Shown here one piece after another: positions 9,877-64,000 of a DNA stretch of 64,000 nucleotides; within the stretch, counting starts at the first letter, position 1, and every line of letters begins with the position of its first letter. A program made the translations under genes and the position numbers. Source of the stretch: a virus; IMG/VR virus record IMGVR_UViG_3300027387_000003, positions 16,589 through 80,588 of that record; one strand, 5' to 3'. Below the pieces are notes generated by a model. The model was not told where the DNA came from. It saw only the letters and a program-made list of their open reading frames with translations, and did no database searches.

Positions 9877-11379
9877 ATGGCATTTCAACGCCCAGGGGTA
9901 TACGTCGAAGAGACACTAAACCCTATTCAACCAGTTGTTGGAGCTAACTCAGACTCTGTTGCTGCCTTTATTGGTGCAGCTGATAGAGGTCCAGTTGGTG
10001 TTCCAACTCTAGTAACATCTTGGAGCCAGTATGTTGCAGCATTTGGTTCTTGGAACTCAGTAGCAAGCAACGACTTGCCACTTGGTGTCTATATGTATTT
10101 CTCAAACGGTGGAAACCAAGCGTACATTGTACGTGCAGCAAACGCTGCAGTTTTAGCAACACGTTCATTAAATGACCGTGCTGTAAGCCCGTCAGCAACA
10201 TTAACAATTGCAGCTAACAGCCCAGGTGCATGGGGAAATAACCTAAACGTTAGTATTGTTAACTCTATTACTACAGGTTATTTTGATTTAATTGTGTACG
10301 CTGGTGGAACAACAGACTCTAACGTTGTTGAGCGTTTTACAGACCTTAGCATGACACTTTCTGATAACCGTTACGCAATTACATCTGTAAACGCTTCCTC
10401 ACAGTATGTAAGACTAACTGACCTTAACTCAGGTAACACAGGAGCTACACGTAACCCAGCAGTAGTAACCAACCAAGCACTAGCATCAGGTTCAAATGGA
10501 AATGCAATTGCTGGGTCTGACTACTCAACTGCAGCAGCTACCTTAGATACCGTTCTACAATCTTTGGTACTTAACGCTCCAGGAGTAACTGCAGCAGCTA
10601 CTGTAAATATTTTGATTAACTATGCGGCTAGCCGTGAAGATGTGTTTGTAGTAATCGATGGTCAAGATACCACCCCAGCTACACAGCTAGCGCTTGCTGC
10701 TACCTATACACCTTCTTCACTTGCAGCTGTTTACTACCCAGCATTAGTAATTGCAGACCCAACAGTCACTATTGGCTCAGCAGCTGGTTTAACAAAAACT
10801 GTTGGTGCTGGAGCTGCTGTAGCTGGATTAATTGCTGCAACTGATTCAGTACGTGGAGTTTTCAAAGCTCCTGCTGGTTTGCAGGCTCGTCTTGCTGGCG
10901 TTGTTTCTGCTCGTCAGCTTACAAATGCAAACCTTGACGCTCTTAACTCAGCTGCTGCTCCAGTAAATGCAATTAAGTTTGTACCTGGTAACGGCTATGT
11001 AGTTATGGGCGCACGTACTCTTAAGGCTGGTTACGTGGATAAGTACGTACCAGTACGTCGCACACTTATCTACCTACGTAAGTCTCTTACAGACCTAACA
11101 CAATTTGCAATCTTTGAGCCAAATGACGAAGCTCTATGGCGTCGAATTGATGCAACTCTTGAAGGGTTCTTAACAGCATTTTGGGCAGAAGGCGGCCTTC
11201 GTGGCGCAACTCCTGACTCAGCGTTCTTCATTAAAATCGATGGGGAAAACAATCCTCAGTATTTGATTGACAATGGAGAAGTGCATATTGAAGTTGGTGT
11301 TGCTTTGCAGCGTCCAGCGGAATTCATTGTAATTAAAATTGGTCAGTTTGACGGTGGAACCACCGTTACTGTGGCGTAA
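9877..11379 (+). CDS. tail sheath protein
   Basis: RPGVYVEE, GVFKAPAG, GARTL, YVPVRR, FEPND, RPAEFI motifs. Confidence 0.95.
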   Translation: MAFQRPGVYVEETLNPIQPVVGANSDSVAAFIGAADRGPVGVPTLVTSWSQYVAAFGSWNSVASNDLPLGVYMYFSNGGNQAYIVRAANAAVLATRSLNDRAVSPSATLTIAANSPGAWGNNLNVSIVNSITTGYFDLIVYAGGTTDSNVVERFTDLSMTLSDNRYAITSVNASSQYVRLTDLNSGNTGATRNPAVVTNQALASGSNGNAIAGSDYSTAAATLDTVLQSLVLNAPGVTAAATVNILINYAASREDVFVVIDGQDTTPATQLALAATYTPSSLAAVYYPALVIADPTVTIGSAAGLTKTVGAGAAVAGLIAATDSVRGVFKAPAGLQARLAGVVSARQLTNANLDALNSAAAPVNAIKFVPGNGYVVMGARTLKAGYVDKYVPVRRTLIYLRKSLTDLTQFAIFEPNDEALWRRIDATLEGFLTAFWAEGGLRGATPDSAFFIKIDGENNPQYLIDNGEVHIEVGVALQRPAEFIVIKIGQFDGGTTVTVA

Positions 11380-37947: not shown

Positions 37948-38278
37948 AGGACAGAAAGAGTCTAAGAAGCACGAGGACCGACTTGCAAAGGCAATTGGTG
38001 GACAGCGTTCAGCTGGAAGCGGTGCCTTTTGGAGTCGTAAAGGCGATGTTCGGTCTGACGATTTGCTCGTAGAGCATAAGTGGACTGGCAAAACCTCCGT
38101 AACCATTAAGGCTGCGGTTCTAAAAAAGATTGTCAACGAAGCAATCGTTGAGAGTCGGATGCCTGTCCTCGGCTTTCACCTTGATGGTGAGAACTACGTA
38201 ATGTTAACCGAAGACGATTTCCTGGAGCTGCGCCACTACCTCCAGGAGTGTAATTGTACGAAGACATCGGGCACGTAG
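37937..38278 (+). CDS. Hjc-like PD-(D/E)xK Holliday junction resolvase
   Basis: E...A, SGA, KGDV, VEHK. Confidence 0.75.
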   Translation: MRTKGQKESKKHEDRLAKAIGGQRSAGSGAFWSRKGDVRSDDLLVEHKWTGKTSVTIKAAVLKKIVNEAIVESRMPVLGFHLDGENYVMLTEDDFLELRHYLQECNCTKTSGT

Positions 38279-38571
38279 AAGGATGGCGTCATAACGCTAA
38301 GTGCCGTGGCATGGATACCGAGCTTTGGTTTCCACCAAGAGACAAAGCAAAATATAAAAAGATAGCAACCATTTCTAAAGCTACGTGCTATGGAAAAGAT
38401 GGGTTGCCAGAGTGCCCTGTTCGTAAGCAGTGTCTTTTGTACGCAGATAGCATGGATGAGCAGCATGGTATCTGGGGTGGAATGTCACACCGTGAACGCA
38501 ACGCATTAAAGCGCAAAGCAAATAAAGAAGGAAAAACATTTAAAGAATGGGTATCAGAGGAGAAGTTGTGA
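38254..38571 (+). CDS. whiB: WhiB-family transcription factor
   Basis: AKC..D..WFP, C..CPVR..C..YA, GIWGG.S..ER. Confidence 0.92.
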   Translation: MYEDIGHVEGWRHNAKCRGMDTELWFPPRDKAKYKKIATISKATCYGKDGLPECPVRKQCLLYADSMDEQHGIWGGMSHRERNALKRKANKEGKTFKEWVSEEKL

Positions 38572-51722: not shown

Positions 51723-53756
51723 ATGGCACTATCTTTCCGACTAGCCGAAGACTTTCTAAAGGAGTACCGTGCTAAACAAGTGCCTTGGGGATACAAGGAT
51801 GCTGGCGGTAACTCCGTCGGTGAGATTACCTTCCTTCGCACCTACTCCCGTCTAAAGGCTGACGGAACTAAGGAGACATGGACTGATGTTTGCCAGCGAG
51901 TAATCGAAGGCATGTACTCAATCCAAAAAGACCACTGCAAGTCCCAGCGTCTTCCTTGGAATGACTCACGAGCTCAGGCTTCGGCTAAGGAAGCCTTCGA
52001 CCGCCTGTTTAACTTAAAGTGGACTCCCCCAGGTCGTGGACTTTGGGTAATGGGAACTCCCTTAGTGAATGAACAAAAGAACTCTGCTGCTTTGCAGAAC
52101 TGCTCTTTTGTATCCACCGCTTCTATGACCAAGTTAGACCCTGCTAAGCCTTTTACTTTCTTGATGGAAGCATCGATGCTAGGCGTTGGTGTGGGCTTTG
52201 ATGATAAGGGTGCGGACAAAGACTTCCCTATTTACGAGCCTTCTAAAGATGAAGCCAACCACCAGATGTGGGAAATCCCAGATACCCGCGAGGGATGGGT
52301 GGACTCTGTTGGCATGCTTATCAACTCCTACTTAAAACCAGACCAGCCTAGATGGGTATTTGATTACACACTTATCCGTCCTGAAGGAGAACCAATCAAG
52401 ACCTTCGGCGGCACTGCAGCTGGGCCAGGGCCTCTCGTTAAGTTACACGACTATATTGCTAACCTATTTGAAGGTCGGGCTAATCAAAAGTTAACCCGCA
52501 AAGATATTGCAGATATAGGCAACCTGATAGGCGTTTGCGTTGTCTCTGGCAATGTCCGCCGCTCAGCCGAACTTCTCATGGGTCGTTTGGATGACAAGGA
52601 CTTCTTAAACTTAAAGAACCCTGCTGTATATCCTGAACGCAACTCTTATGACCCCGCCTCTCCTGGCTGGGCATGGATGTCTAACAACTCTGTCGAGGTA
52701 AAGGTCGGAGATGACTTCTCTGGAATTATCGAAGGTATCGCTCTCAATGGTGAGCCTGGGGTTATCTGGATGGATGTTACCCGTCAGTATGGTCGTCTTA
52801 TTGACCCAATCAATAATAAAGACCATCGAGCCTCTGGATATAACCCATGCGCTGAACAGTCCCTTGAATCTTTTGAGTGCTGTACTTTGGTGGAGACTTA
52901 CCTCAACCGCCACGACTCTATAGATGACTACAAGCGCACATTAAAGTTTGCGTACTTATATGCAAAGACTGTCACGTTGCTTCCTACTCACTGGGAAGAA
53001 ACAAATGCAATCATGCAACGCAATCGTCGTATCGGAACTTCTATGTCTGGTGTGGCTAACTTTGCAGACCGCAAGGGCTTGCCAACTCTCCGTGAGTGGA
53101 TGGACTCTGGCTACAAAGTCATCCAAGACTACGACCGCACATACTCAGAGTGGCTAGGTATCCGTGAATCTATTAAGACTACTACTGTGAAGCCAAGCGG
53201 AACTGTATCTATCCTTGCTGGAGAATCTCCTGGAGTGCATTGGACGCCAGGTGGAGAATACTTTAACCGTGCAATCCGCTTTTCTAATGATGACCCTATG
53301 CTACCTCTCTTTAGAGCGTCGGGTTATAAAGTAGAAAAGGCTTCGGAATCTCCAAAAACAACTTCTGTAGTCTTCTTCCCCATCCATAGCTCCGCGCTAC
53401 GCAGTGAGAAAGATGTTTCTATATATGAAAAGACCTCTCTCGCGGCTATGGCTCAGCGCCATTGGTCAGACAACAGTGTAAGCGTTACAGTATCGTTTGA
53501 CGCGGACAAAGAAAAGGATGCCGTGGGAACAGTGCTACATATGTTTGACGGGCAACTCAAAACCGTTTCCTTCCTACCTATGGGGAACGCGACTTACCCG
53601 CAAATGCCATACACACAGATAACTAAAGAAGAATACGACAAATCTACTATGAAGTTACTGCCTATTGACTTTACTGATGTCTATGCGGGAATGGCAGCGG
53701 ACGCAATCGGCGAGAAATACTGCTCAACAGACTACTGCGAAGTACCTAAACAATAA
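51723..53756 (+). CDS. nrdJ: class II (B12-dependent) ribonucleoside-triphosphate reductase
   Basis: PPGRGLW, NCSF, GNVRRSA, NPCAEQ, TTVKPSGT, C-terminal CxxxxC. Confidence 0.93.
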   Translation: MALSFRLAEDFLKEYRAKQVPWGYKDAGGNSVGEITFLRTYSRLKADGTKETWTDVCQRVIEGMYSIQKDHCKSQRLPWNDSRAQASAKEAFDRLFNLKWTPPGRGLWVMGTPLVNEQKNSAALQNCSFVSTASMTKLDPAKPFTFLMEASMLGVGVGFDDKGADKDFPIYEPSKDEANHQMWEIPDTREGWVDSVGMLINSYLKPDQPRWVFDYTLIRPEGEPIKTFGGTAAGPGPLVKLHDYIANLFEGRANQKLTRKDIADIGNLIGVCVVSGNVRRSAELLMGRLDDKDFLNLKNPAVYPERNSYDPASPGWAWMSNNSVEVKVGDDFSGIIEGIALNGEPGVIWMDVTRQYGRLIDPINNKDHRASGYNPCAEQSLESFECCTLVETYLNRHDSIDDYKRTLKFAYLYAKTVTLLPTHWEETNAIMQRNRRIGTSMSGVANFADRKGLPTLREWMDSGYKVIQDYDRTYSEWLGIRESIKTTTVKPSGTVSILAGESPGVHWTPGGEYFNRAIRFSNDDPMLPLFRASGYKVEKASESPKTTSVVFFPIHSSALRSEKDVSIYEKTSLAAMAQRHWSDNSVSVTVSFDADKEKDAVGTVLHMFDGQLKTVSFLPMGNATYPQMPYTQITKEEYDKSTMKLLPIDFTDVYAGMAADAIGEKYCSTDYCEVPKQ

Positions 53757-53906: not shown

Positions 53907-54068
53907 TTATTTACATTTATTACAGTAATTAGGAACTCTCAGATTATTAGGGTGTGTGCGGTAAGTGCTACCACAGTGAAAGCATAGAACTTGCACAGTA
54001 GAACTATCTCCGAACTTACTCTCTTTAATATAAAACGGGTTACGAACTCTTATATCTTTAATCATCAT
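53907..54068 (-). CDS. small Zn-finger protein (53 aa)
   Basis: CFHC...CNKC, read by hand. Confidence 0.55.
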   Translation of the reverse strand: MMIKDIRVRNPFYIKESKFGDSSTVQVLCFHCGSTYRTHPNNLRVPNYCNKCK

Positions 54069-54177
54069 CTTCTAACTCATCATCATCTACCCACTCATCG
54101 GGGTCTATTGTAGGACTTGGGTTACCCCAATCAGGTTCAGGAACGATAGGGTCAAACGAATAACCAAACTTAGACAT
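54058..54177 (-). CDS. small acidic peptide (39 aa)
   Basis: MSKFGYSFDP...DDD, read by hand. Confidence 0.45.
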   Translation of the reverse strand: MSKFGYSFDPIVPEPDWGNPSPTIDPDEWVDDDELEDDD

Positions 54178-54184
54178 TTAACTA

Positions 54185-54472
54185 TTAAATCTCTCTCTTG
54201 AACAATACTTTGCCCTCAAACGACATAGGCTTGCCCTTTGCGTCAAGGTCAGTACCAGCAATCATCTTTACAGACTTCTTAGTGGTCATCTTAATAACCA
54301 TTTCCTTAATCCAACGCTTACCTGCGCTCGCGTTAGACCATGCGGTTGATACGATTACATTACCTTCGTCAATGCCCTCATCATAAGTGGTAACACGGGC
54401 TAACCATGCGCCACCCTTCTCAGGGTTCTTCTTTAGCGTAGCGTCAAATACTACATTTACTTTCTTAGCCAT
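54185..54472 (-). CDS. hypothetical protein
   Basis: AAGGAG RBS; TAGACA-17-TACCCT promoter upstream. Confidence 0.7.
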   Translation of the reverse strand: MAKKVNVVFDATLKKNPEKGGAWLARVTTYDEGIDEGNVIVSTAWSNASAGKRWIKEMVIKMTTKKSVKMIAGTDLDAKGKPMSFEGKVLFKREI

Positions 54473-54554
54473 TTAATTTCTCCTTAGGGTAGGCGTGAAA
54501 AGGGTACTGCTATACAACTAACTTGTCTAGTGGGCGTTGTGCGCCCAGCACAAA

Positions 54555-54665
54555 CTAACTAACGCCGTCCATTTCCGATACGGACTTCTTCTCTATCTTT
54601 AATCCTTCGTCTTTACCGCAACTGCAATTACCGCAACCGCACTTACTCTCTTTATCGTCAGACAT
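54555..54665 (-). CDS. Cys-rich mini-protein (CGCGNCSC)
   Basis: 36 aa read by hand, preceded by (GA)10. Confidence 0.45.
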   Translation of the reverse strand: MSDDKESKCGCGNCSCGKDEGLKIEKKSVSEMDGVS

Positions 54666-54685
54666 CTCTCTCTCTCTCTCTCTCT
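54665..54685. repeat. (TC)10 microsatellite
   Basis: TCTCTCTCTCTCTCTCTCTCT. Confidence 0.9.
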
Positions 54686-54687
54686 TA

Positions 54688-54831
54688 TTAAATAGACGCA
54701 GGGCTACCCTGCGGTACGATACACATTACGCAAAAGGCTAACCCAACCGCTACGGCTTGCTCAATATCCATGCCTTCGGGTGCAATTAACTCTCCGTTAT
54801 CATACTCAATAAAACAACGGGCGCATCTCAT
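54688..54831 (-). CDS. small Zn-finger protein (47 aa)
   Basis: CARC...CVMC, ATGA-coupled. Confidence 0.5.
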   Translation of the reverse strand: MRCARCFIEYDNGELIAPEGMDIEQAVAVGLAFCVMCIVPQGSPASI

Positions 54832-55274
54832 TTCTCAATACCAAAGTCCTCTAGGTTCTCATCTGTAATAGTAGTGGTGGGTTCTAATTTATATTCCGTA
54901 CCATAGCCCTTGTAGATTACTGTGCCGTCATTATCGGTAATTGTAACCACTTCTCTTGCCGTTGTAATAAAATCTTGTAGGTAGTGACTATCAACAATAG
55001 TTTCTACTGTGGCTTCACTCTCTCCCTTATATTTAATTCCTTCGGGTAGTGTAATAAGACTATCCCACTCCTCTTTATTGGCGTGTTCGATAGCCTCAAT
55101 ACATGTTTCTACCATAGCAAGGGGTACGGGTGGGTTAAGATTATTCTGTAAGTGGTACGCGACCAACTTCCAATAGTCGCTGACTTCCTCTAACTCGTCG
55201 TCAAGGTTCTCTATAATCTCGCCTTCATATACTTCGTGACCTTCATGGTCGTATCCGATAAACTCATCAGACAT
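54828..55274 (-). CDS. acidic hypothetical protein
   Basis: HL..N..PPVP..MV..C.EAI pattern; GGGAG RBS. Confidence 0.7.
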   Translation of the reverse strand: MSDEFIGYDHEGHEVYEGEIIENLDDELEEVSDYWKLVAYHLQNNLNPPVPLAMVETCIEAIEHANKEEWDSLITLPEGIKYKGESEATVETIVDSHYLQDFITTAREVVTITDNDGTVIYKGYGTEYKLEPTTTITDENLEDFGIEK

Positions 55275-55416
55275 GGTAAGACACTCCCGTTCGTAGGTTT
55301 CTTTGATACATAACTTCTGTAATTGTATCCCTAGTAAGACAATTAGCACAACCGCATGCTAACGGGTGTCCTTCAATAAGCCTATCTAACTCATCTAATA
55401 ACTCTGTTACGCTCAT
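55267..55416 (-). CDS. small hypothetical protein (49 aa)
   Basis: AAGGAG RBS, ATGA-coupled. Confidence 0.5.
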   Translation of the reverse strand: MSVTELLDELDRLIEGHPLACGCANCLTRDTITEVMYQRNLRTGVSYHV

Positions 55417-55568
55417 GCTATCTCCTTTACAATAAGGTTAGCCTTGTGGATAAGGTCGCCGTATTCCTGACGCACCCACTCATCTGCTAACGCTAGGGCT
55501 TCCGCGCTTGTATCTGTATCCCATGCGGTTGATATATCCGCTACAACTCTTACTTCGTACTTAGGCAT
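55413..55568 (-). CDS. small hypothetical protein (51 aa)
   Basis: MPKYEVRV..., overlapping ORF chain. Confidence 0.55.
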   Translation of the reverse strand: MPKYEVRVVADISTAWDTDTSAEALALADEWVRQEYGDLIHKANLIVKEIA

Positions 55569-55728
55569 ATTCCTCTACCTCTCGCTCAATAACGCCTTCT
55601 ACAATAAGGCTATCTAATAGGTCTGCTACATCTCCTAGCCGACCCTTTAACTTAGGGTCGGTTACTGCGTATCGTGCTTCCTCTACGGCATTTACCATTG
55701 AGTATAGGTTTTCCTTTGTGTATTCCAT
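55561..55728 (-). CDS. small hypothetical protein (55 aa)
   Basis: TAATG-coupled. Confidence 0.55.
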   Translation of the reverse strand: MEYTKENLYSMVNAVEEARYAVTDPKLKGRLGDVADLLDSLIVEGVIEREVEEYA

Positions 55729-56000
55729 TATGCTTTCTCGCTTTCTGTTTCTAATAGGCTTAGGTAGCCCACGATAGGTGGCTCTATATTTAACTCTGTC
55801 ATTAGTTCATAGATACTGTCATTAGCCTCATCTATCACCATGCGCTCGTCATGGTAATCAAGGTTCTCTATGCGTGGGTCGTCTGCGTTACGAAGGTACG
55901 CGGTATCTAGTGCTACATCTAGTGCGGTATCTAATAGGCTTATTGCCTTCTCATCACCATTTATATATTTATTAAATAGGGCTAGGTATTGTGGGTTCAT
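55728..56000 (-). CDS. hypothetical protein
   Basis: ORF chain. Confidence 0.65.
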   Translation of the reverse strand: MNPQYLALFNKYINGDEKAISLLDTALDVALDTAYLRNADDPRIENLDYHDERMVIDEANDSIYELMTELNIEPPIVGYLSLLETESEKA

Positions 56001-56155
56001 TTGCTTCTGTCCTCTAGGTAGAATAAATAATCTAACGCGGTATCACACGCATTAACGCCGTACTCGTCTTTTTCGATTTCCTCATGCGCCTTTAATCGGG
56101 TTAATACTTCTTTCAGTAGTTCTTTGTAATCTATATTTGGGTCTTGGTATTCCAT
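55997..56155 (-). CDS. small hypothetical protein (52 aa)
   Basis: GAAGGG RBS, ATGA-coupled. Confidence 0.55.
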   Translation of the reverse strand: MEYQDPNIDYKELLKEVLTRLKAHEEIEKDEYGVNACDTALDYLFYLEDRSK

Positions 56156-56235
56156 ATTTGTTGCCCTTCTGTTTGTGTTGTAGCGGATACCTGCACCTTA
56201 ACTGCAAGTATCCGCCCGAACGCCTGTTCGTATTG

Positions 56236-58113
56236 TTAGTGCCTCTTACCCATGACCAACTTAACTAGGTCTTTAGCAATATCTACTAGGTCGCGTGGCT
56301 CTGATACTACACGCATTACCTGTGCTTCATGTCGTACTTCCTTCATGTACGCCTTGTAGCGGTCGTAGTCGTTAGCCTTTATCCACTCAAAGTCACCGAG
56401 GAAGGCTACGCTAGTCATAACTCCCTCTTTAGATAAGTCTTTAATAATCCTATCGTTCTGCTCTGTCATATCCCATGAGCCGTCGGTAACGATAAATAGT
56501 ATCTTGATACCTTTACGGCTAGTGCGAAGTATGCGTTGCGCTTCTAATAGGGCTTTGTAAGGGTTAGTACCACCGCTACTATTTACGAAGCGGTATTCCG
56601 TAGGCTTAGCCTTCTCATCTGCGCTATAAACTAGGCGAGAGTCGTGGTTAAACTTATAGACGGATACGCGCCCGTTAATGCGTTCGATACCGCGCTTGAT
56701 AGTCCATGCGCTCTCCATAGTTCTCTGTATCTGCCACGCCATGCTACCGCTAGTATCTACTAGGACTACCGCTTCTATGTCGTTGTTGCTATTGCCTTCA
56801 CTCCACCTATCGAATAGGCGGTTAATGTCGTTAATATCTGACTTCATAGCGCGACCTATATTTAAGCGACCGCTTTCTACTTCTAACTCCCATTGTGGGT
56901 CGTTATCTATGCGTAGGCGTTCCATAGCCACAGCGAAGTTACGAGCGTTAGCCTGTAACTGTGGCTTCACAACGCTATTAGTGTATGAGCCCTGCTTAAT
57001 AGCACTATGAGAGTTAGAGTTATCACGGATAGCCTTACGGACTTCCTGTGTATCTCGCTTAACTTCCTCACGCTTTAGTAGTTCGTTGAGGTCATTGTTA
57101 ATCTTATCTTTGAGGGCTTTATCATCTGCGCTCTGCTCATCTGATAAGCCTGTTGTATCGTTGGAGTTAGTGTTATCGGCAGGTTCATCTAACTTCTCAT
57201 TACCTGCGTTACTACCTGCTTCCTGACTACTAGCCTTATCTTGTAGTTTCTGTTGCTCTTTGTTACCTTCCATGCGACCTTTATCCATAGGCTTGCGGTC
57301 GCCATGACCACCGCCGTCCTGTGGGATAGGGCTATCACCCGTTGGTTGGTCGTCCTTACCGACTATCTGTGCAAACTGTCGGAGAATATCCAACGCTCTT
57401 GCGTAGTCGCGTGGGAATACGAGGGTGCGGTACTCATGGATAATCACGGATAGCAACTGCGCGGTATTAACGCCATGCTTCTTAATAAACCTATCTGCGA
57501 GTTCCTGTCGCAACTCTATATCTAAATACTTACGACCTGTAAATAGTGGGAAGTAATCTGCAAACTCGTTGCTATCTCCCTTCAAGATATATTCTAGGCA
57601 TGAGGCTTCTAGGAAGGGTGCGGTCGCAGGGTACTTAGCGATTAGTAGGCGTTCGATACGGCTATCTTCTAGGATATTGAAGGCTCTGCCTAAGCCTTCC
57701 TGTCTGATAGTCGTACCAAACTCACTACCACCACGCGGAGTCCATAGGACATGCGCGACCTCATGGTAGTTAAACCCATGAAGGCTCACGATACTCTCGT
57801 CGGTTACATCTTCTAGTAGGTGTGCGTTGAACACGATATTCTTGCCGTCGTTATAGGCGGTAGTATCCATTTCAGGGTTATCTTCAACCCGTACTTCTAC
57901 GGGGTCGCCTGTAATAATCCTATCTGCCTTGCTATACACGATACCGACGGATTGTAACTTTTCGATATGCTTTGCTACGGCTTCCTGTCGTTCTTCAATA
58001 GCGTCGTAGTCGGTAACCCAATTACCTTCTTCATCACGGGAGTTATATTCTCCCCCGTAACGAAGTTCGTTAATAAGGTTATCTAATATGTCGTTCTGAT
58101 TAGCCTTAGGCAT
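56236..58113 (-). CDS. CobT-like metallopeptidase-vWA domain protein
   Basis: HEVAH, NILEDSRIE, MIDAS DTSGS, GGT, TDG. Confidence 0.88.
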   Translation of the reverse strand: MPKANQNDILDNLINELRYGGEYNSRDEEGNWVTDYDAIEERQEAVAKHIEKLQSVGIVYSKADRIITGDPVEVRVEDNPEMDTTAYNDGKNIVFNAHLLEDVTDESIVSLHGFNYHEVAHVLWTPRGGSEFGTTIRQEGLGRAFNILEDSRIERLLIAKYPATAPFLEASCLEYILKGDSNEFADYFPLFTGRKYLDIELRQELADRFIKKHGVNTAQLLSVIIHEYRTLVFPRDYARALDILRQFAQIVGKDDQPTGDSPIPQDGGGHGDRKPMDKGRMEGNKEQQKLQDKASSQEAGSNAGNEKLDEPADNTNSNDTTGLSDEQSADDKALKDKINNDLNELLKREEVKRDTQEVRKAIRDNSNSHSAIKQGSYTNSVVKPQLQANARNFAVAMERLRIDNDPQWELEVESGRLNIGRAMKSDINDINRLFDRWSEGNSNNDIEAVVLVDTSGSMAWQIQRTMESAWTIKRGIERINGRVSVYKFNHDSRLVYSADEKAKPTEYRFVNSSGGTNPYKALLEAQRILRTSRKGIKILFIVTDGSWDMTEQNDRIIKDLSKEGVMTSVAFLGDFEWIKANDYDRYKAYMKEVRHEAQVMRVVSEPRDLVDIAKDLVKLVMGKRH

Positions 58114-59644
58114 TTTGATTTCCTTCTGATAGGACTTCTACTAGCGCGTTGAACGATTGAAGTTCCTGCTCTAGTGCCTGTGTAGCGGTAATGTCAGGGT
58201 CGCTAGCCACTATGCCTACTTCGTAGGAAGCGACCTGTGCGCCTACTTCTGTATTAGCAATAGCCTGTTCTAAGTTAGAGTTACCAAACACACTAGCCTT
58301 ATTAGTAACTTCTAGTCCTAGTTCCTCTGCGATATTGTCGCGGTGGGTGTTGATTACTAGGCGTACCGCCGAGCGTTCCTCATCACCCTCAAAAGAATTG
58401 ACATAGGTGTAGGTAGCAAAGTCCATGCCAAACTGCTTTGCATGCTTAACGAACGCGACCAACGCTCTAGTGGATACGGGAGTCAATAGCGTACCCTTAT
58501 TAAACTCATCACGGAGTTGGTTAGCCATATCTACTAGGGCTTTGTTACCGAGTAACTTCTGCTCAATAGGCTTATCGTATGGGAAGGATAGGCGAATTGC
58601 GAAGCGGTCGGCGAGTGCCTGATTAAGTGGGCGAGTGCCACGATAGTCAGGGTTCATGTCGGCGATAATAATTAAGTCCTTATGGGCGCGGATAACCTCT
58701 CCACCATTTTCCATTAACTGTATCTCACGGCGGTAATCTAATAGGCTAAAGATAAAGGTGAGGAAGCGTTCAGGTGCGAAGTTAATCTCGTTAAATAGGA
58801 GTACGCCACCATTACGGACGATTTCTGTAACTGCGCCGTCCTGCCAACGGAAGTGACCTTCGGGTGTTGGTATCCAACGACCGATTAGGTGTGAGGCTTC
58901 TAGCCCGATATGGCATGCGACATTGAAGTAGCGCATGTTTCTAGCGGAAGCATAAGCCTGAACGCTCATAGTCTTACCTGACCCTGCGTGACCCTCAATA
59001 AGGATATTCATGTCATTGACTAGGGCGTAGTCATATACCTCAAAGTCGGTAAGGTTATTAACGACCTTGCGGTTGATATATTCCTTAGCCCACTTCTTGT
59101 CGGGTACGGATACCATAGCGGTAACGAGGCTATTAGATAGGTCGGCATTGTTAATAGTCTTAGTAGGCACGACGGATACTTCCATAACCTTAGTAGCGAC
59201 CTCTGCTTCCACCGCTTTCGCGATAGGCTTAATAGATACACCCGTGGTTCTGCGCTTGTCGGTAATGAAGTCGGCTAGGGATTGGTCGCCTGACTCTAGG
59301 CGTGTAATAAGACTATCTACTGCCTCATTGTGTGCCATAGGCGCGGTTGCTTCGGGTGCGCTTTCTAGGGCATATAGGGCTTTGATACCGACATTGGTAA
59401 TCTGACCCAACTTCATCATCTCAATATCCCTATCTGATAGGACTACGGCGCAAGGCTCGTTGGTGATAGGGGCGGTTGGGATAGTGCTATCTGTAAGGGG
59501 TTGCCATGATTGACCACGCCCCTTCTGACCATTGGATACGCGGTGGTATCCGATAACTTCTGTATCTGTACCGATAAGGAGAGTCTGCGATTGTGCAGGT
59601 GTTCCTTCTAGTTCGGTGTCAGACACTACGAGTAGTGCGAGCAT
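58106..59644 (-). CDS. MoxR/CobS-family AAA+ ATPase
   Basis: GHAGSGKT, W.DG, LLFNEIN, MNPDYRGTRPLNQALADRF, STR. Confidence 0.9.
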   Translation of the reverse strand: MLALLVVSDTELEGTPAQSQTLLIGTDTEVIGYHRVSNGQKGRGQSWQPLTDSTIPTAPITNEPCAVVLSDRDIEMMKLGQITNVGIKALYALESAPEATAPMAHNEAVDSLITRLESGDQSLADFITDKRRTTGVSIKPIAKAVEAEVATKVMEVSVVPTKTINNADLSNSLVTAMVSVPDKKWAKEYINRKVVNNLTDFEVYDYALVNDMNILIEGHAGSGKTMSVQAYASARNMRYFNVACHIGLEASHLIGRWIPTPEGHFRWQDGAVTEIVRNGGVLLFNEINFAPERFLTFIFSLLDYRREIQLMENGGEVIRAHKDLIIIADMNPDYRGTRPLNQALADRFAIRLSFPYDKPIEQKLLGNKALVDMANQLRDEFNKGTLLTPVSTRALVAFVKHAKQFGMDFATYTYVNSFEGDEERSAVRLVINTHRDNIAEELGLEVTNKASVFGNSNLEQAIANTEVGAQVASYEVGIVASDPDITATQALEQELQSFNALVEVLSEGNQNA

Positions 59645-59669
59645 ATTGTGACCCTTCGGTGCGGTTATA

Positions 59670-59761
59670 GAGATACCCTCTTGTACCTCATGGATAGATA
59701 CTAGGGGATAGGCTCTCTATATTAAAGACGGCTCTCAAATCTGTTCATCTAGTTATCCACA
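59670..59761 (-). promoter_or_regulatory. early promoter module: DnaA box + TGTTCA motif + -10 TAGTAT + 5' hairpin
   Basis: TTATCCACA 59753-59761; -10 at 59698-59703. Confidence 0.65.
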
Positions 59762-59964
59762 GCCTCTCTCGCCTCTCTACCTGAACAACCTATGAACAAC
59801 CTCTACCGCCACCACCGCCACCTATCATCATAATAAGCCTAGTCCATAGCCGTACATCTGGTGTTATCCCTGCACACTCCCTTCGGCTCGGTGGCAGTAG
59901 CCTAACGGCTAAATAAGCCTATTAAATGCGCCCTCTTTCTCTCTTATCATTGGCTCTCTTTGCT

Positions 59965-60199
59965 TGTCAAACTCTCGTTCATACAGTTATCCACAGGCGG
60001 CAAATGTTTGTGTTGAGCAATAGCCTACGGCTTATTGCTCAACAGAGGAATCCAGCCTTTTTATATTAAAAAGGCTGGCAAAAAGGGTGGGAAAGCATAA
60101 ATGTATAATTGAATACATTTATGCGATGGGTGGGCCAACACAAACATTCCAGGCTGGCGGCAGGAAAAAGCCCCTCTGCTAGTCTTAGCAGAGGGGCTT
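59965..60199 (-). repeat. intergenic module: terminator, branched hairpin, DnaA box, TTGACA
   Basis: Terminator 60165-60199; outer IR 60003-60015/60136-60148; three inner palindromes; box 59987-59995. Confidence 0.8.
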
Positions 60200-60234
60200 G
60201 GTGGTATTCCCGAAGGGGACGGAGATACTACTTC

Positions 60235-60750
60235 CTAGCAGATTTTAAAACCACCACTATCTGCTAGAAACTGTGCAAACTCTTCTACATTAGTCCTACT
60301 AAAGGGATAGTGTGTCTCCCAACTATCTGTTTCTCCCTTGCCATGACACCCATTACAGTATCCAATAGCCCTACCTAACGCGCTCGCCTCGGCATCTGTT
60401 AAGACTTGTACATCCATGCCGTGCTCCACGCCCACATTGTCGGTACGAATCCCTGTTGCCTCGCAGTATTTGCACGGCTCTTTAGGTAGGCTTGCTAGAT
60501 ACTCGTTACGCTTCTGCTCATAGGTATCTACAACGCCTTCTGATAGGCTTATTGTGAGGATATTAGCGAGCGCCTTAGCGCCTTCCTCATCTAGACCGTC
60601 ACCGTCGTTGGTATGACCTTGGACTCCTTGTGTCAGTTCAGGGGCAATCTCCTCGCAGAAATCCCACAAAGGTCGCCACCACCATACATTGTTGCGGAAA
60701 TACTCACCCTTCTCACTAATAGGGTTATTTCCATAGACATCCATACCCAT
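60235..60750 (-). CDS. hypothetical protein with DnaJ-type CxxCxGxG zinc motifs
   Basis: YFRNNVWWWRPLW, CKYCEATG, CNGCHGKG. Confidence 0.75.
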   Translation of the reverse strand: MGMDVYGNNPISEKGEYFRNNVWWWRPLWDFCEEIAPELTQGVQGHTNDGDGLDEEGAKALANILTISLSEGVVDTYEQKRNEYLASLPKEPCKYCEATGIRTDNVGVEHGMDVQVLTDAEASALGRAIGYCNGCHGKGETDSWETHYPFSRTNVEEFAQFLADSGGFKIC

Positions 60751-61154
60751 TATGCTAATCCCATCCGTTTCTTAATCTCGTTGGCTACTTCTAAATCTAT
60801 CGGTGTAATAGTCTTATCTTCGTAGTCACCACCATAGTTGTAGGTAATGTTCTCATCTACGCTAATAATGTAGGTAGCGTGTAGGCAATCCATACTCCAG
60901 TTAGTAAGGTTGAACTCCCGTTCCTCAGGTGATAAATCCATGAACGAGGTTATGTTCTCCCCATCAGGGTCGTTCTCCTCGTCGTACTTACCATCCTCAT
61001 CCCATGAGTGGTACTTCGCATGAGACTCAGCCATAAAGTCTGCCTCATCTGCGGAGTTAGCGTTGCCGTGGGTATCGCAACTGTCGCAATACCATACCCA
61101 CCCACCGATAGTGCTTTTGCAGGTTGCAGGTGTGATTAAGTCTTTAATCTGCAT
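60750..61154 (-). CDS. hypothetical protein
   Basis: TAATG-coupled, CDSC..H. Confidence 0.7.
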   Translation of the reverse strand: MQIKDLITPATCKSTIGGWVWYCDSCDTHGNANSADEADFMAESHAKYHSWDEDGKYDEENDPDGENITSFMDLSPEEREFNLTNWSMDCLHATYIISVDENITYNYGGDYEDKTITPIDLEVANEIKKRMGLA

Positions 61155-61375
61155 TACGCCACCTCAATCATCATATAAGACCAATTCTCATTGGCTTTCT
61201 GCATTACAGGCTTAATGCTATCTAATAGGGTTTCCTTACCTGCTTGTGCCATAGCCCCATCTACGATACCGCTAGTCACATACTTCAGGTATTCGTGTTC
61301 CTCTACGCACACATTGAAGGTGACTGTGAAGGGTACTTCTACCATCTTCTTGCCGTTAATAACCTTAGTTGTCAT
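61154..61375 (-). CDS. hypothetical protein
   Basis: Coupled ORF. Confidence 0.65.
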   Translation of the reverse strand: MTTKVINGKKMVEVPFTVTFNVCVEEHEYLKYVTSGIVDGAMAQAGKETLLDSIKPVMQKANENWSYMMIEVA

Positions 61376-61886
61376 TTGATAACCCTTCCTCGATATAACG
61401 CTTCAAGTCTTTCGTGGTCATGTCTAATAGTGCTATTGGGTCGAACTGCTGTGCCTTGCTCTGCATACCTTCATTACTGCGAAGGATAAGTGTGAGGTCA
61501 TCAGGGATTTCTATATCCATTACATCTATCATCTTGGCGAAAGTGCCCATTAGGAACGCCATTGGCATAAACGCACCCTTAGCCCACGCCACATGGATTG
61601 CTAGGGTTACTGAGGATATATCGTCCTCGCTTGGTTGTTGGTCAGCCTCATGCTTTTCTTGGCAAGCACCAAAGCCTGTATTGGCGAGCGCGTTAATAAG
61701 ATTACCAACGAACTCATCTTCCTCACGCATAGCCTGTGCCATGACGGCGGTTTTAAGGTTGCCGTCTGATAGACCATAAGACCCGCGTGGGAACTTAGGG
61801 TCGTAGTTCTCATCTTCCTGACTGCCTAATAACTCTATCGTAGTCATTAGTTCTGTGAAACGCTCTCTGCGCTCTGTGTTATTCAT
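61365..61886 (-). CDS. hypothetical protein
   Basis: AAAGGAG RBS. Confidence 0.7.
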   Translation of the reverse strand: MNNTERRERFTELMTTIELLGSQEDENYDPKFPRGSYGLSDGNLKTAVMAQAMREEDEFVGNLINALANTGFGACQEKHEADQQPSEDDISSVTLAIHVAWAKGAFMPMAFLMGTFAKMIDVMDIEIPDDLTLILRSNEGMQSKAQQFDPIALLDMTTKDLKRYIEEGLSNDN

Positions 61887-61914
61887 AGTATCTCCTTTAC
61901 TAGGTAACGGCGTA

Positions 61915-62113
61915 ATACTAATACCCCACCTCTCATCTGCATAGGGGGCTGTTCATCTACTTATCCACAGGGTTGTTTGTGCTGGGACTATTAGATGGCG
62001 CTTTGATAGATAAATCTATCAAAGCATATAAAGCTTCAATAGCCATCTAATAGTCCCAGCACAAACTATTTGCGCATGCAAAAGCCCCTGACCAGTCCAA
62101 ATGGTCAGGGGCT
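61915..62113 (-). repeat. intergenic module: terminator, 25-bp perfect hairpin, DnaA box, promoter
   Basis: Terminator 62083-62113; IR 61975-61999/62042-62066; box 61961-61969; -10 TAGTAT 61915-61920. Confidence 0.85.
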
Positions 62114-62132
62114 CTATTAGCAGGGTTATCTA

Positions 62133-62615
62133 CTAATCCTCGTAGATAGTTACATCAACATGTTCCTGAAGGAAGTCGTCCAACTCCCATGTTGAGTCAC
62201 GGTAATCACCGTTGTCACCTAGTGATGAGATACTTACCTTTAAGATAACCTCATCAAATGAGATGTCATCTAGGACTTTTTGCTTAGCGTCGTCCTCATC
62301 ATCAGCCTCGATATCAACGATTTCCATGACCGTTGAGCCGAACAGAGTAACCTCTGCGCGAAATCGTGTCCGAAGGTCGGACTCCTCTGCGGTATCCCAA
62401 CCACACGCAATCGCAATCTTATTAAACAGTTCGACGGCATCTTCTTCCGTCATTGAGCCGTCCGATACCTCGGACTTGAATATGGCTAGTACATCAGCCC
62501 TATTAGAGGCACGGAGTGTATTCCAGCCCCATTCCTTGCCCGTCTGACGGGCTTCCTCTACGCGGGTCGCGATGTCGCTCTCCTCGTAGTAGGTTATATC
62601 ATTGAGTGTGAACAT
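62133..62615 (-). CDS. acidic hypothetical protein
   Basis: ORF between two modules; IEADDEDDA motif. Confidence 0.7.
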   Translation of the reverse strand: MFTLNDITYYEESDIATRVEEARQTGKEWGWNTLRASNRADVLAIFKSEVSDGSMTEEDAVELFNKIAIACGWDTAEESDLRTRFRAEVTLFGSTVMEIVDIEADDEDDAKQKVLDDISFDEVILKVSISSLGDNGDYRDSTWELDDFLQEHVDVTIYED

Positions 62616-62634
62616 AACCGTTCTTTCTCTTAAT

Positions 62635-62842
62635 ATGAACACCCCTTGTGCTCATGGCTTTATATTAGACTATCTAACAGACAGGTCTCAAACTCTTGTT
62701 TACCTGGTTATCCACAGGTTACCCGCCAGTAATGTTTGTGCTGGGGCTTATGTGTGTATTTAAAGAATGTTACCGATATACACACACGCCCATAAGCCCC
62801 AGCACAAACAAATCAGCCCCCAAGCTTTGCGCTTGGGGGCTG
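62635..62842 (-). repeat. intergenic module: terminator, 20-bp hairpin, DnaA box, TTGAGA-18-TAATAT promoter, 5' hairpin
   Basis: Terminator 62814-62842; IR 62733-62752/62791-62810; box 62708-62716. Confidence 0.85.
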
Positions 62843-62855
62843 TCTTGTAATCTTA

Positions 62856-63863
62856 TTAGACGCTCGCGAACTCGCGAACTGCCTTCAAGATTCGTGCCTT
62901 CTCGGCATTGACCGTAGGGTCGAAACCAGCAGCAGCACCGATAAGTGCCTCACCATTGGCTGTGCGTGATGAGCGGAAGTAATCTAGGCGCTCAGTGAGA
63001 GCGTTAAGTGCTCCCCAATAGTTACCCTTGATATTGGTCTGGGTAGGAGACTGGAAATAAATATCATCCAGTAGGTCGCGCTTGGCTTGCCACTTGGTGA
63101 GTGACTGAGGCGCAGACTGTGCGTCAGGCTTAGGATAAACGGCATTTACCAATTTATCCCATGCTTGAGAGTCCATCGAGGACTGAAAGAGACCTTGCGC
63201 GATAGTCTCAAAAGAGTCCATGTGCGCGAAAGTGAGACCCAATACACGACGAGCCTCGGCTGTGCGCTCGCCAGTCTTGAGAGTGTGGCGCAACTTGAAA
63301 GATTGCTTGCAACCCTTGAGCGCCATATTGAGAGTGTTTTGGCAAACAACTCTAACGGGAGTAATTGAGGCGGTAACGCTGGCGCTACCGTCATGTGAGG
63401 ATGAGACTAGGAGATAAGTCGTAGTCTTATCATTGGCACCCGCTGGGTCCAATACGAACTCGCGAGGTACGACGAGGGAGCCGAAGACAACCTTGCCATC
63501 CTTGATTGAGCCAGCAGATTCCCAAGACGCGCCACCGTCTAGGATATTATCCCCGAACTGGAACAGGTCCTCATTCTGGAATACGCGGTAACGCTTACCC
63601 ACGATTGAGAGGACATCCTTGCCCCCGTCGAATGGGTTGGTGCGTGTGACCATGAATAGGTCGGTTGATGAGCGGTAATCCGCTGGATATTGAACAGGCT
63701 CGAGGTCTACACCCCAGCCAGCCAATTTGGCACTTTCTAGCATGTCGGCGGTTGTGACATGCTCGTCAATGCCGAAAGTACGGTTGGCGAGACCATGCCA
63801 CGCGGGAGCACCGCGTAATGCAAAAGCCACCTCACCGTTTTGAACCTCGAGCGCATGAGCCAC
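62856..63863 (-). CDS. DUF932 / phage-plasmid LGT family protein
   Basis: PAWHGL, Y..FQN, SHDGS, TPVRVVCQNTL, RHT, WGALNA.TE..D; GTG start after GAAGGGG. Confidence 0.85.
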   Translation of the reverse strand: MAHALEVQNGEVAFALRGAPAWHGLANRTFGIDEHVTTADMLESAKLAGWGVDLEPVQYPADYRSSTDLFMVTRTNPFDGGKDVLSIVGKRYRVFQNEDLFQFGDNILDGGASWESAGSIKDGKVVFGSLVVPREFVLDPAGANDKTTTYLLVSSSHDGSASVTASITPVRVVCQNTLNMALKGCKQSFKLRHTLKTGERTAEARRVLGLTFAHMDSFETIAQGLFQSSMDSQAWDKLVNAVYPKPDAQSAPQSLTKWQAKRDLLDDIYFQSPTQTNIKGNYWGALNALTERLDYFRSSRTANGEALIGAAAGFDPTVNAEKARILKAVREFASV

Positions 63864-63884
63864 GAGAATCCCCCTTCGGTAAAT

Positions 63885-64000
63885 ATGCAACGCCTTGTTG
63901 CATGCGCTTATCTTAGGCTTATCTCTCGCTCTCATGCAATAGGGCTATCTCTACTTGTTCATCTAGTTATCCACAGGGCGCCCTGGTTGTTTGTGTTGGG
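63885..64000 (-). promoter_or_regulatory. intergenic module (truncated by window end): hairpin arm, DnaA box, TTGCAT-18-TAAGAT promoter, 5' hairpin
   Basis: TGTTTGTGTTGGG 63988-64000; box 63967-63975; -10 63910-63915. Confidence 0.75.

Follow-up and report, generated by a model that had tools for sequence, protein, structure and literature searches.

Possible host DnaA sites phased to predicted early promoters in repeated terminator–hairpin–promoter cassettes of a phage assigned to an actinobacterial host

The locus and its repeated module

A repeated intergenic module built around a perfect DnaA-box sequence was analysed in a viral stretch of 64,000 nucleotides (the window), which corresponds to bases 16589–80588 of the linear, 80,588-bp IMG/VR record IMGVR_UViG_3300027387_000003. 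The record is approximately 84% complete and the end of the window is the end of the contig. In the gene map of the window, plus-strand genes run to about position 53,756, the site of a class II ribonucleotide reductase, and a minus-strand arm occupies 53,907–63,935; all box modules lie within that arm.

Among the DnaA boxes of E. coli and B. subtilis, the 9-mer TTATCCACA has the highest affinity (PMC4285127). It occurs six times in the window, where 0.59 occurrences are expected by chance, and none of 100 shuffled sequences reached six. Five of the copies are perfect, co-oriented and intergenic, beginning at plus-strand positions 59753, 59987, 61961, 62708 and 63967; the gene arm is on the minus strand and the boxes thus read CTGTGGATAA in the direction of transcription. 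A preliminary description had placed five such boxes within 4.3 kb and had put the chance expectation at 0.5: every position was recovered, and the expectation computed here is of the same order. The record as a whole, 80.6 kb, has five TTATCCACAG sites, every one in its final 4.3 kb, and the longer 21-mer TGTTCATCTAGTTATCCACAG is found five times with zero to three mismatches (0.01 expected). The sixth perfect box, in opposite orientation, lies at 55445–55453 in the gap upstream of a gene for a 173-amino-acid protein (54828–55349), and is kept in two relatives, L006 and L007.

Read in the direction of transcription, the unit comprises a gene, its intrinsic terminator, a long hairpin with a constant base, the 22-mer CTGTGGATAACTAGRTNAACAR, a −35/−10 pair and the next gene, which is the order previously proposed. 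The T-tract of the terminator (TTTGTTTGTG) doubles as the left arm of the long hairpin, whose base is constant (GTTTGTG(Y)TGGG / CCCA(R)CACAAAC) and whose interior is variable and often nested. A spacer of 2–22 nt separates hairpin and 22-mer. In most modules a TTGnnn −35 element begins 3–5 nt after the 22-mer; the −10 element is TAnnnT, often TAGnnT, the actinobacterial form, and a GGAG-type ribosome-binding site precedes the gene. The box at 59753 has no hairpin, and a non-coding unit of approximately 200 nt stands in its place. Promoters here and below are predicted from the −35/−10 consensus alone. Following the direction of transcription, the features are:

63987–64000, no strand: left arm of a long hairpin upstream of the DUF932 gene, TTGTTTGTGTTGGG, cut at the contig end
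63956–63976, minus: repeat copy 1, CTGTGGATAACTAGATGAACA on the minus strand; DnaA box 63967–63975
63910–63939, minus: consensus-predicted promoter, TTGCAT, 18-nt spacer, TAAGAT; box centre at about −68
62856–63866, minus: DUF932 gene (Pfam PF06067, 4e-46)
62815–62841, minus: intrinsic terminator of the DUF932 gene; its T-tract enters the hairpin base
62733–62810, no strand: long hairpin, base TGTTTGTGCTGGGG / CCCCAGCACAAACA, 19 bp perfect or 25 bp at 92%; free energy (dG) −43.7 kcal/mol
62697–62717, minus: repeat copy 2; DnaA box 62708–62716
62662–62691, minus: consensus-predicted promoter, TTGAGA, 18-nt spacer, TAATAT; box centre at about −57
62133–62642, minus: single-gene cassette F14 (169 amino acids), absent in L008 and L009
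62083–62113, minus: intrinsic terminator of the 169-amino-acid gene
61975–62066, no strand: long hairpin enclosing a nested one; arms of 25 bp, perfect; dG −59.6
61950–61970, minus: repeat copy 3; DnaA box 61961–61969
61915–61943, minus: consensus-predicted promoter, TATGCA, 17-nt spacer, TAGTAT; box centre at about −57
60235–61886, minus: four-gene unit (173, 73, 134 and 171 amino acids) without an internal module
60169–60198, minus: intrinsic terminator of the four-gene unit
60005–60146, no strand: 140-nt branched structure, a 10–11-bp constant base around three inner hairpins; dG −58.2
59976–59996, minus: repeat copy 4; DnaA box 59987–59995
59942–59970, minus: predicted promoter of the non-coding unit, TTGACA, 17-nt spacer, ATAAGA (a weak −10); box centre at about −56
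59762–59941, minus: non-coding unit between two modules, with no open reading frame of at least 40 amino acids
59742–59762, minus: repeat copy 5, without a preceding hairpin; DnaA box 59753–59761
59698–59726, minus: consensus-predicted promoter, TTTAAT, 17-nt spacer, TAGTAT; box centre at about −66
58106–59644, minus: CobS-like AAA_5 ATPase, opening a long operon behind the last box
56236–58113, minus: CobT-like VWA protein, second gene of the same operon

Stems of 13, 25 and 20 bp had been proposed for the three complete hairpins. The 25-bp stem is as described; the first has 10–11 bp rather than 13, and the third has a perfect stem of 19 bp or, at 92%, one of 25 bp. The fourth hairpin is indeed interrupted by the window end, and L006 and L007 have a complete counterpart there. 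The DUF932 gene likely starts at the GTG at 63866, which follows GAAGGGGG and gives a protein of 336 amino acids, and not at the program-assigned ATG at 63935: the latter overlaps the predicted −35 element, and DUF932 relatives, also of 336 amino acids, align from residue 1 of the GTG start. The non-coding unit at 59762–59941 has its own box and predicted promoter, and blocks such as GGCTACTGCCACC and TAATAGGCTTAT are kept in seven relatives; it may encode a small RNA.

Two further observations concern the arm. Some 6–11 nt past the predicted −10, at what should be the 5′ end of the transcript, about two thirds of the modules have a hairpin of 6–8 bp; its loop is often AAGG(G), as in GTGAGC-AAGGG-GCTCAC (examples at 63885–63905 and 62632–62656, and also in L007), and these hairpins may be 5′ stabilisers. 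A motif resembling ATAAGGCTATCTAATAGG recurs six to seven times across 55375–62681, mostly inside genes.

The phage encodes a tail sheath, baseplate, PolA-type DNA polymerase, helicase and exonuclease, together with a DpdA/TGT-like enzyme and the CobS-like and CobT-like proteins. On gene content its host is placed in the phylum Actinobacteria, because it encodes a WhiB-family transcription factor (38254–38571, plus strand; Pfam 2.8e-17). A WhiB-family protein was found in all five relatives tested and, among 14 control genomes, in Corynebacterium only. The closest isolates are Streptomyces phages: the PolA protein is 41% identical to those of Alone3 and BRock, and the DUF932 protein 50% identical to those of Jay2Jay and its close kin. 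A nucleotide search of the module region against isolated phages returned no match.

Assignment of the host via the reductase was attempted and abandoned; it returned only Micrococcales enzymes, the nearest at 61–63% identity, and contigs of metagenome-assembled genomes (MAGs) that are probably mis-binned. Reductases 60–75% identical to that of the phage occur on contigs L034–L045, binned to Flavobacterium, Luteolibacter, Cyclobacteriaceae and other MAGs; these, like the many lake MAG contigs that the reductase matches, are probably mis-binned phage DNA. An 85-kb contig (C1 of G009) in a Bifidobacterium MAG holds five CTGTGGATAAC sites.

Conservation, phasing and exchange of the module in related phages

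Fifteen related loci were gathered from IMG/VR by scanning for the exact pattern and by searching with the DUF932 protein. Five relatives, whose DUF932 proteins are 69–93% identical to that of the window, carry 9, 10, 11, 9 and 5 perfect boxes, making 49 with the five of the window, and all are co-oriented with the genes. Each of these (5 of 5 in the window, 49 of 49 across the six phages) is a perfect TTATCCACA, where the definition of a DnaA box would also admit the relaxed form TTWTNCACA. The module thus recurs in related phages, as it had been suggested that it might, at 5–11 copies each; in a complete 98-kb relative (G004) all nine forward boxes fall inside 6.3 kb of the minus-strand arm. 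Outside the clade, matches to the window-type 20-mer in an IMG/VR pattern scan were mostly single and at chance level.

Alignment of the copies on the box reveals a core common to all lineages, gcCTGTGGATAACT, followed by ten bases that are uniform within lineages and different between them. These read AGRTNAACAR in the window lineage, GTGAACAA plus an additional GATGAACAA in L008 (where some 22-mers are tandemly duplicated) and TTYCTGAGAG in L010; in L011 ten variable bases are followed by AATCGTTATA. The repeat consensus proposed earlier is therefore shared across lineages only in CTGTGGATAACT, the perfect box plus flanks; its second half is lineage specific. The same pattern is evident where the orthologous region upstream of one gene is aligned: the hairpin base and CCTGTGGATAA are kept and the remainder has diverged. 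It had been argued that loss of boxes from otherwise preserved flanks would count against the element. In the box-bearing relatives the reverse holds, the box being kept while the rest of the intergenic region, apart from the hairpin base, has diverged; in the complete 97-kb relative G005, described below, hairpins and promoters are indeed kept without the box array.

The position of the box is constrained relative to the promoter. The distance from box end to −10 is 39–40 nt in eight of ten independent modules of the window lineage, a count that includes three modules where the heuristic was overridden by eye, and 49–51 nt in the other two; it is 59–60 nt in L008 and 61–62 or 67 nt in L011. 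Box centres accordingly fall near −56, −66 and −76, in steps of about one helical turn. Because the box is phased to the −10 while its distance from the hairpin is not fixed (2–22 nt), it is part of the promoter rather than of the hairpin or the terminator. Judged against the sigma-A pattern of −35 and −10 hexamers with a 16–19-nt spacer, TTGnnn / TAnnnT pairs stand at the phased positions; a strict scan with the E. coli consensus passes just one of them.

The genes between modules also differ among relatives, as the preliminary description had proposed should be examined, and whole promoter-to-terminator units differ at module borders. Unit F29 is confined to L006 and L007, the two phages in which F13 precedes the DUF932 gene; in four others F13 follows that gene. 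F14, as listed above, is missing from two relatives. F29, F13 and F14 vary as entire units, and a unit of L006 that is absent from the window has the constant hairpin base at both borders. These properties, a repeated host-type promoter and stem-loop terminator around small genes, with gene differences that map to cassettes, are those of the early-promoter/stem-loop (PeSL) cassettes of T4-type phages (Arbiol et al. 2010, PMC2839356).

Such exchange raises the possibility that the box has no binding role, and that a promoter–terminator cassette homogenised by recombination matters only as a joint. The differences of F29, F13 and F14 at module borders would fit, as would the homogenisation of copies in a genome by lineage and the like behaviour of PeSL cassettes (PMC2839356). 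Recombination alone fails, however, to explain a 12-mer that is perfect in five lineages despite changes in the second half, the spacer and the hairpin interior alike, and it fails to explain the phased spacing to the −10. We consider this explanation very unlikely.

Long hairpins number 40 instances at ten loci; they span 70–143 nt, pair perfectly over 10–30 bp and have dG values between −23 and −64 kcal/mol. Because they are placed after the terminator they should rarely be transcribed. A match to a described Rfam family had been foreseen as a challenge to novelty; none matches, as no family reaches its gathering threshold and only sub-threshold, generic hairpin (miRNA precursor) matches were returned. 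They may serve as insulators or reserve terminators, as RNase III sites in RNA that has read through, as cruciforms in the DNA or as recombination joints. Identity with integron attC sites was rejected: the hairpin ends do not fit RYYYAAC / GTTRRRY and an integrase was not seen.

Loss and replacement of the box are seen on the same layout. G005 (locus L009) retains the hairpins and promoters; at the box positions it has CCTGTGAGTTT and, directly against the −35, TCGGGCGTGTCG, and its only perfect boxes are one inverted pair directly after the DUF932 gene. The lineage L012–L018 has no box array; L012 holds one inverted perfect pair and L013–L018 hold none. Here the hairpin base is altered to GTTTGGGTTGG / CCAACCCAAAC, both arms having changed in concert. 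The inverted pair, TTATCCACAgccTGTGGATAA, follows the DUF932 gene at 11068–11088 in L009 and 2748–2779 in L012. Nine promoters of L019 (2471–8010) show a third lineage-specific signature: ATGTCAGACCCC stands in the promoter spacer, and the −10 is of the extended type. The Jay2Jay record (L005) opens with ~11 kb, taken as a terminal repeat, whose intergenic gaps repeat a terminator, GGCCCGGACA and a TTGnnn/TAGACT promoter, and no box is present there. Since relatives have lost or replaced the box on a retained layout, the comparison of sequences indicates that the cassette architecture is old and the upstream promoter element exchangeable, the DnaA-box version marking one clade.

Candidate readers of the box

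From the observed anatomy, conservation, phasing and cassette differences we infer, tentatively, as the best of the readings considered but with somewhat less than even odds, that the box is a host-DnaA site serving as a phased upstream element of early promoters carried in PeSL-like cassettes. CTGTGGATAACT would be a docking site for host DnaA, lying upstream of the −35 by one, two or three turns of the helix, on the same face. From that position DnaA would influence, most likely by stimulation, transcription by the host's sigma-A RNA polymerase, and expression of the presumed early genes would thereby be tied to the host's pool of active initiator. The approximately ten high-affinity boxes per genome would titrate DnaA as a by-product, and the lineage-specific second half beside the −35 would be a second site for another factor. 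Terminator, long hairpin, box, promoter and gene would together form self-contained cassettes, whose repeated borders would act as recombination joints.

Both activation and repression of transcription by DnaA are established (PMC13438810). The G...G flanks of the box presumably match those of boxes R1 and R4 of E. coli oriC. Arrangements with the degeneracy and spacing typical of DnaA sites occur in relatives: L019, a more distant one, has a tandem array of five box variants, TGTGGATAA / TGTGGATAA / TAAGATAAC / TGTGGAAAA / TGTGGAAAC, spaced at 11–12 nt, and this array and pairs in L011 include variants (TTTTCCACA) with gaps of 2–3 bp; 22-mers are in tandem in L008, and the boxes of the window are single.

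DnaA might also bind for a purpose other than transcription, be it titration, anchoring of a first-entering end as proposed for T5, or dispersed starts of replication. The supply of some ten perfect boxes per genome, multiplied by phage replication, would suit such a purpose; the L019 array is tight and without tie to a promoter, and the Jay2Jay homologue of DUF932 matches twice in its record, once near the left end, which is taken as a terminal repeat. Neither titration nor anchoring, however, requires fixed orientation or helical phasing to the −10, and the boxes are distributed one per promoter over 4–7 kb rather than clustered. Moreover, a first-entering end is presumed, and G004 closes on a 55-bp overlap. 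The phasing favours a role in transcription over titration alone, and we judge a purely non-transcriptional purpose unlikely. A replication origin was rejected on the dispersal of the boxes, one per promoter. For the stepwise-injection or single-stranded-DNA priming role proposed in the preliminary description, no evidence was found.

Several observations weigh against the reading of the box as a DnaA site of early promoters. A generic sigma-70 scan showed no enrichment in the module region. Because G005 and L012–L018 are without the box at the same positions, the box is dispensable or replaceable; the nearest isolated Streptomyces phages also lack it, Jay2Jay having GGCCCGGACA at the equivalent site. 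The high-affinity box reported for Streptomyces and Mycobacterium is TTGTCCACA, with G at position 3, not TTATCCACA, and no G-variant box was found in any module; boxes of the form TTATCCACA are, however, present in the oriC of Bifidobacterium longum. Conservation reaches past the 9-mer. The copies in a lineage share one second half, which points to a second, co-evolving factor.

These last considerations lead to an alternative, in our view fairly unlikely, in which some protein besides DnaA uses the 22-mer as its operator or activator site, and identity to the box is coincidence or mimicry. That protein could be another host transcription factor or an early regulator encoded by the phage or delivered with the virion, such as one shutting off early promoters. 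It would account for conservation of 12–22 nt rather than just nine, for second halves that are uniform per lineage, as in sites that co-evolve with a trans-acting factor, for the quite different motifs at equivalent promoter positions in G005, L019 and Jay2Jay, and for the departure from the actinobacterial consensus G at position 3. It is opposed by the improbability of a perfect 9-mer within a random conserved 10-mer (approximately 1e-5 by our own estimate), by the exact match of the invariant portion to the DnaA box whatever the second half, and by variants such as TTTTCCACA in the DnaA-typical arrays of L019 and L011. Nor does a candidate gene co-occur with the boxes: the only gene present in all box-bearing genomes yet absent in the box-less G005 is one small open reading frame with no family match, and comparison of G004 with G005 for a box-linked regulator yielded none with a known DNA-binding fold. 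Searches for a phage-encoded DnaA domain IV in five genomes found none; Lsr2 was likewise not found, and no phage repressor or integrase was seen.

Other readers of the 22-mer were judged by eye and rejected: single-subunit RNA polymerase, sigma-54, ECF (extracytoplasmic function) sigma factors, CRP and LexA each fail on spacing or on key bases, and the motif is followed by good −35/−10 pairs. A role of the TGAACA half as −35 element was set aside, no consistent −10 being located 17 nt downstream.

A bolder form of the DnaA reading, which we regard as somewhat unlikely, would see in these phages a lytic actinophage clade that uses host DnaA as its master early input, its early cassettes firing only in the presence of active DnaA, and so reads the replication readiness of the host. 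Multiplication of the boxes would then drain DnaA from oriC and halt host initiation, and the box–hairpin joints would allow early genes and regulator sites to be swapped between phages.

Relation to known systems and significance

The likeness to PeSL cassettes is one of organisation. Both are small, repeated cassettes of host-type promoter and stem-loop terminator that flank single non-essential genes, and in both the gain, loss and rearrangement of genes between relatives map to cassettes. No sequence relation is expected, however, the phage groups being different and the host phylum another, and the additional long, constant-base perfect hairpin and the DnaA box upstream of the −35 are found only here. 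DnaA-regulated promoters, such as those of E. coli dnaA and nrdAB and P. aeruginosa gidA p1 (PMC13438810), likewise have a consensus box beside a promoter for the housekeeping sigma factor, and their upstream box position is compatible with activation. Those cellular promoters are single, whereas here about ten predicted phage early promoters carry the same perfect box, phased.

In the iss (injection-stop) region of T5-like phages (Davison 2020, bioRxiv 10.1101/866236) perfect and variant boxes likewise stand amid palindromes, in the presumed first-entering, pre-early part of the genome, and there as here a role for DnaA is a proposal. The eight T5 boxes are paired 3 bp apart in one large untranslated region, away from promoters; in the window no such pairs in one untranslated region were found, and single boxes, one per promoter, are spread over 4.3 kb.

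The stoperators of cluster A mycobacteriophages (the gp71 sites of L5) bind the repressor of a temperate phage and block elongation. These and the present sites are both asymmetric actinophage sites that occur in many copies in short intergenic gaps and are oriented with transcription. The difference is that here the site lies upstream of the −35, has the sequence of a host-protein site and is accompanied by no repressor or integrase that we could see.

No published description of this element was found in the searchable literature, and none of a whole early regulon placed under the replication initiator. Among host targets, RNA polymerase and sigma factors are known to be taken over by phages. 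If DnaA does bind these sites, a virus could sense the growth state of its host, and disturb host replication, by cis elements alone. Cassette shuffling in the style of PeSL would extend to actinophages, and compact, portable and insulated promoter modules for actinobacteria would be on offer.

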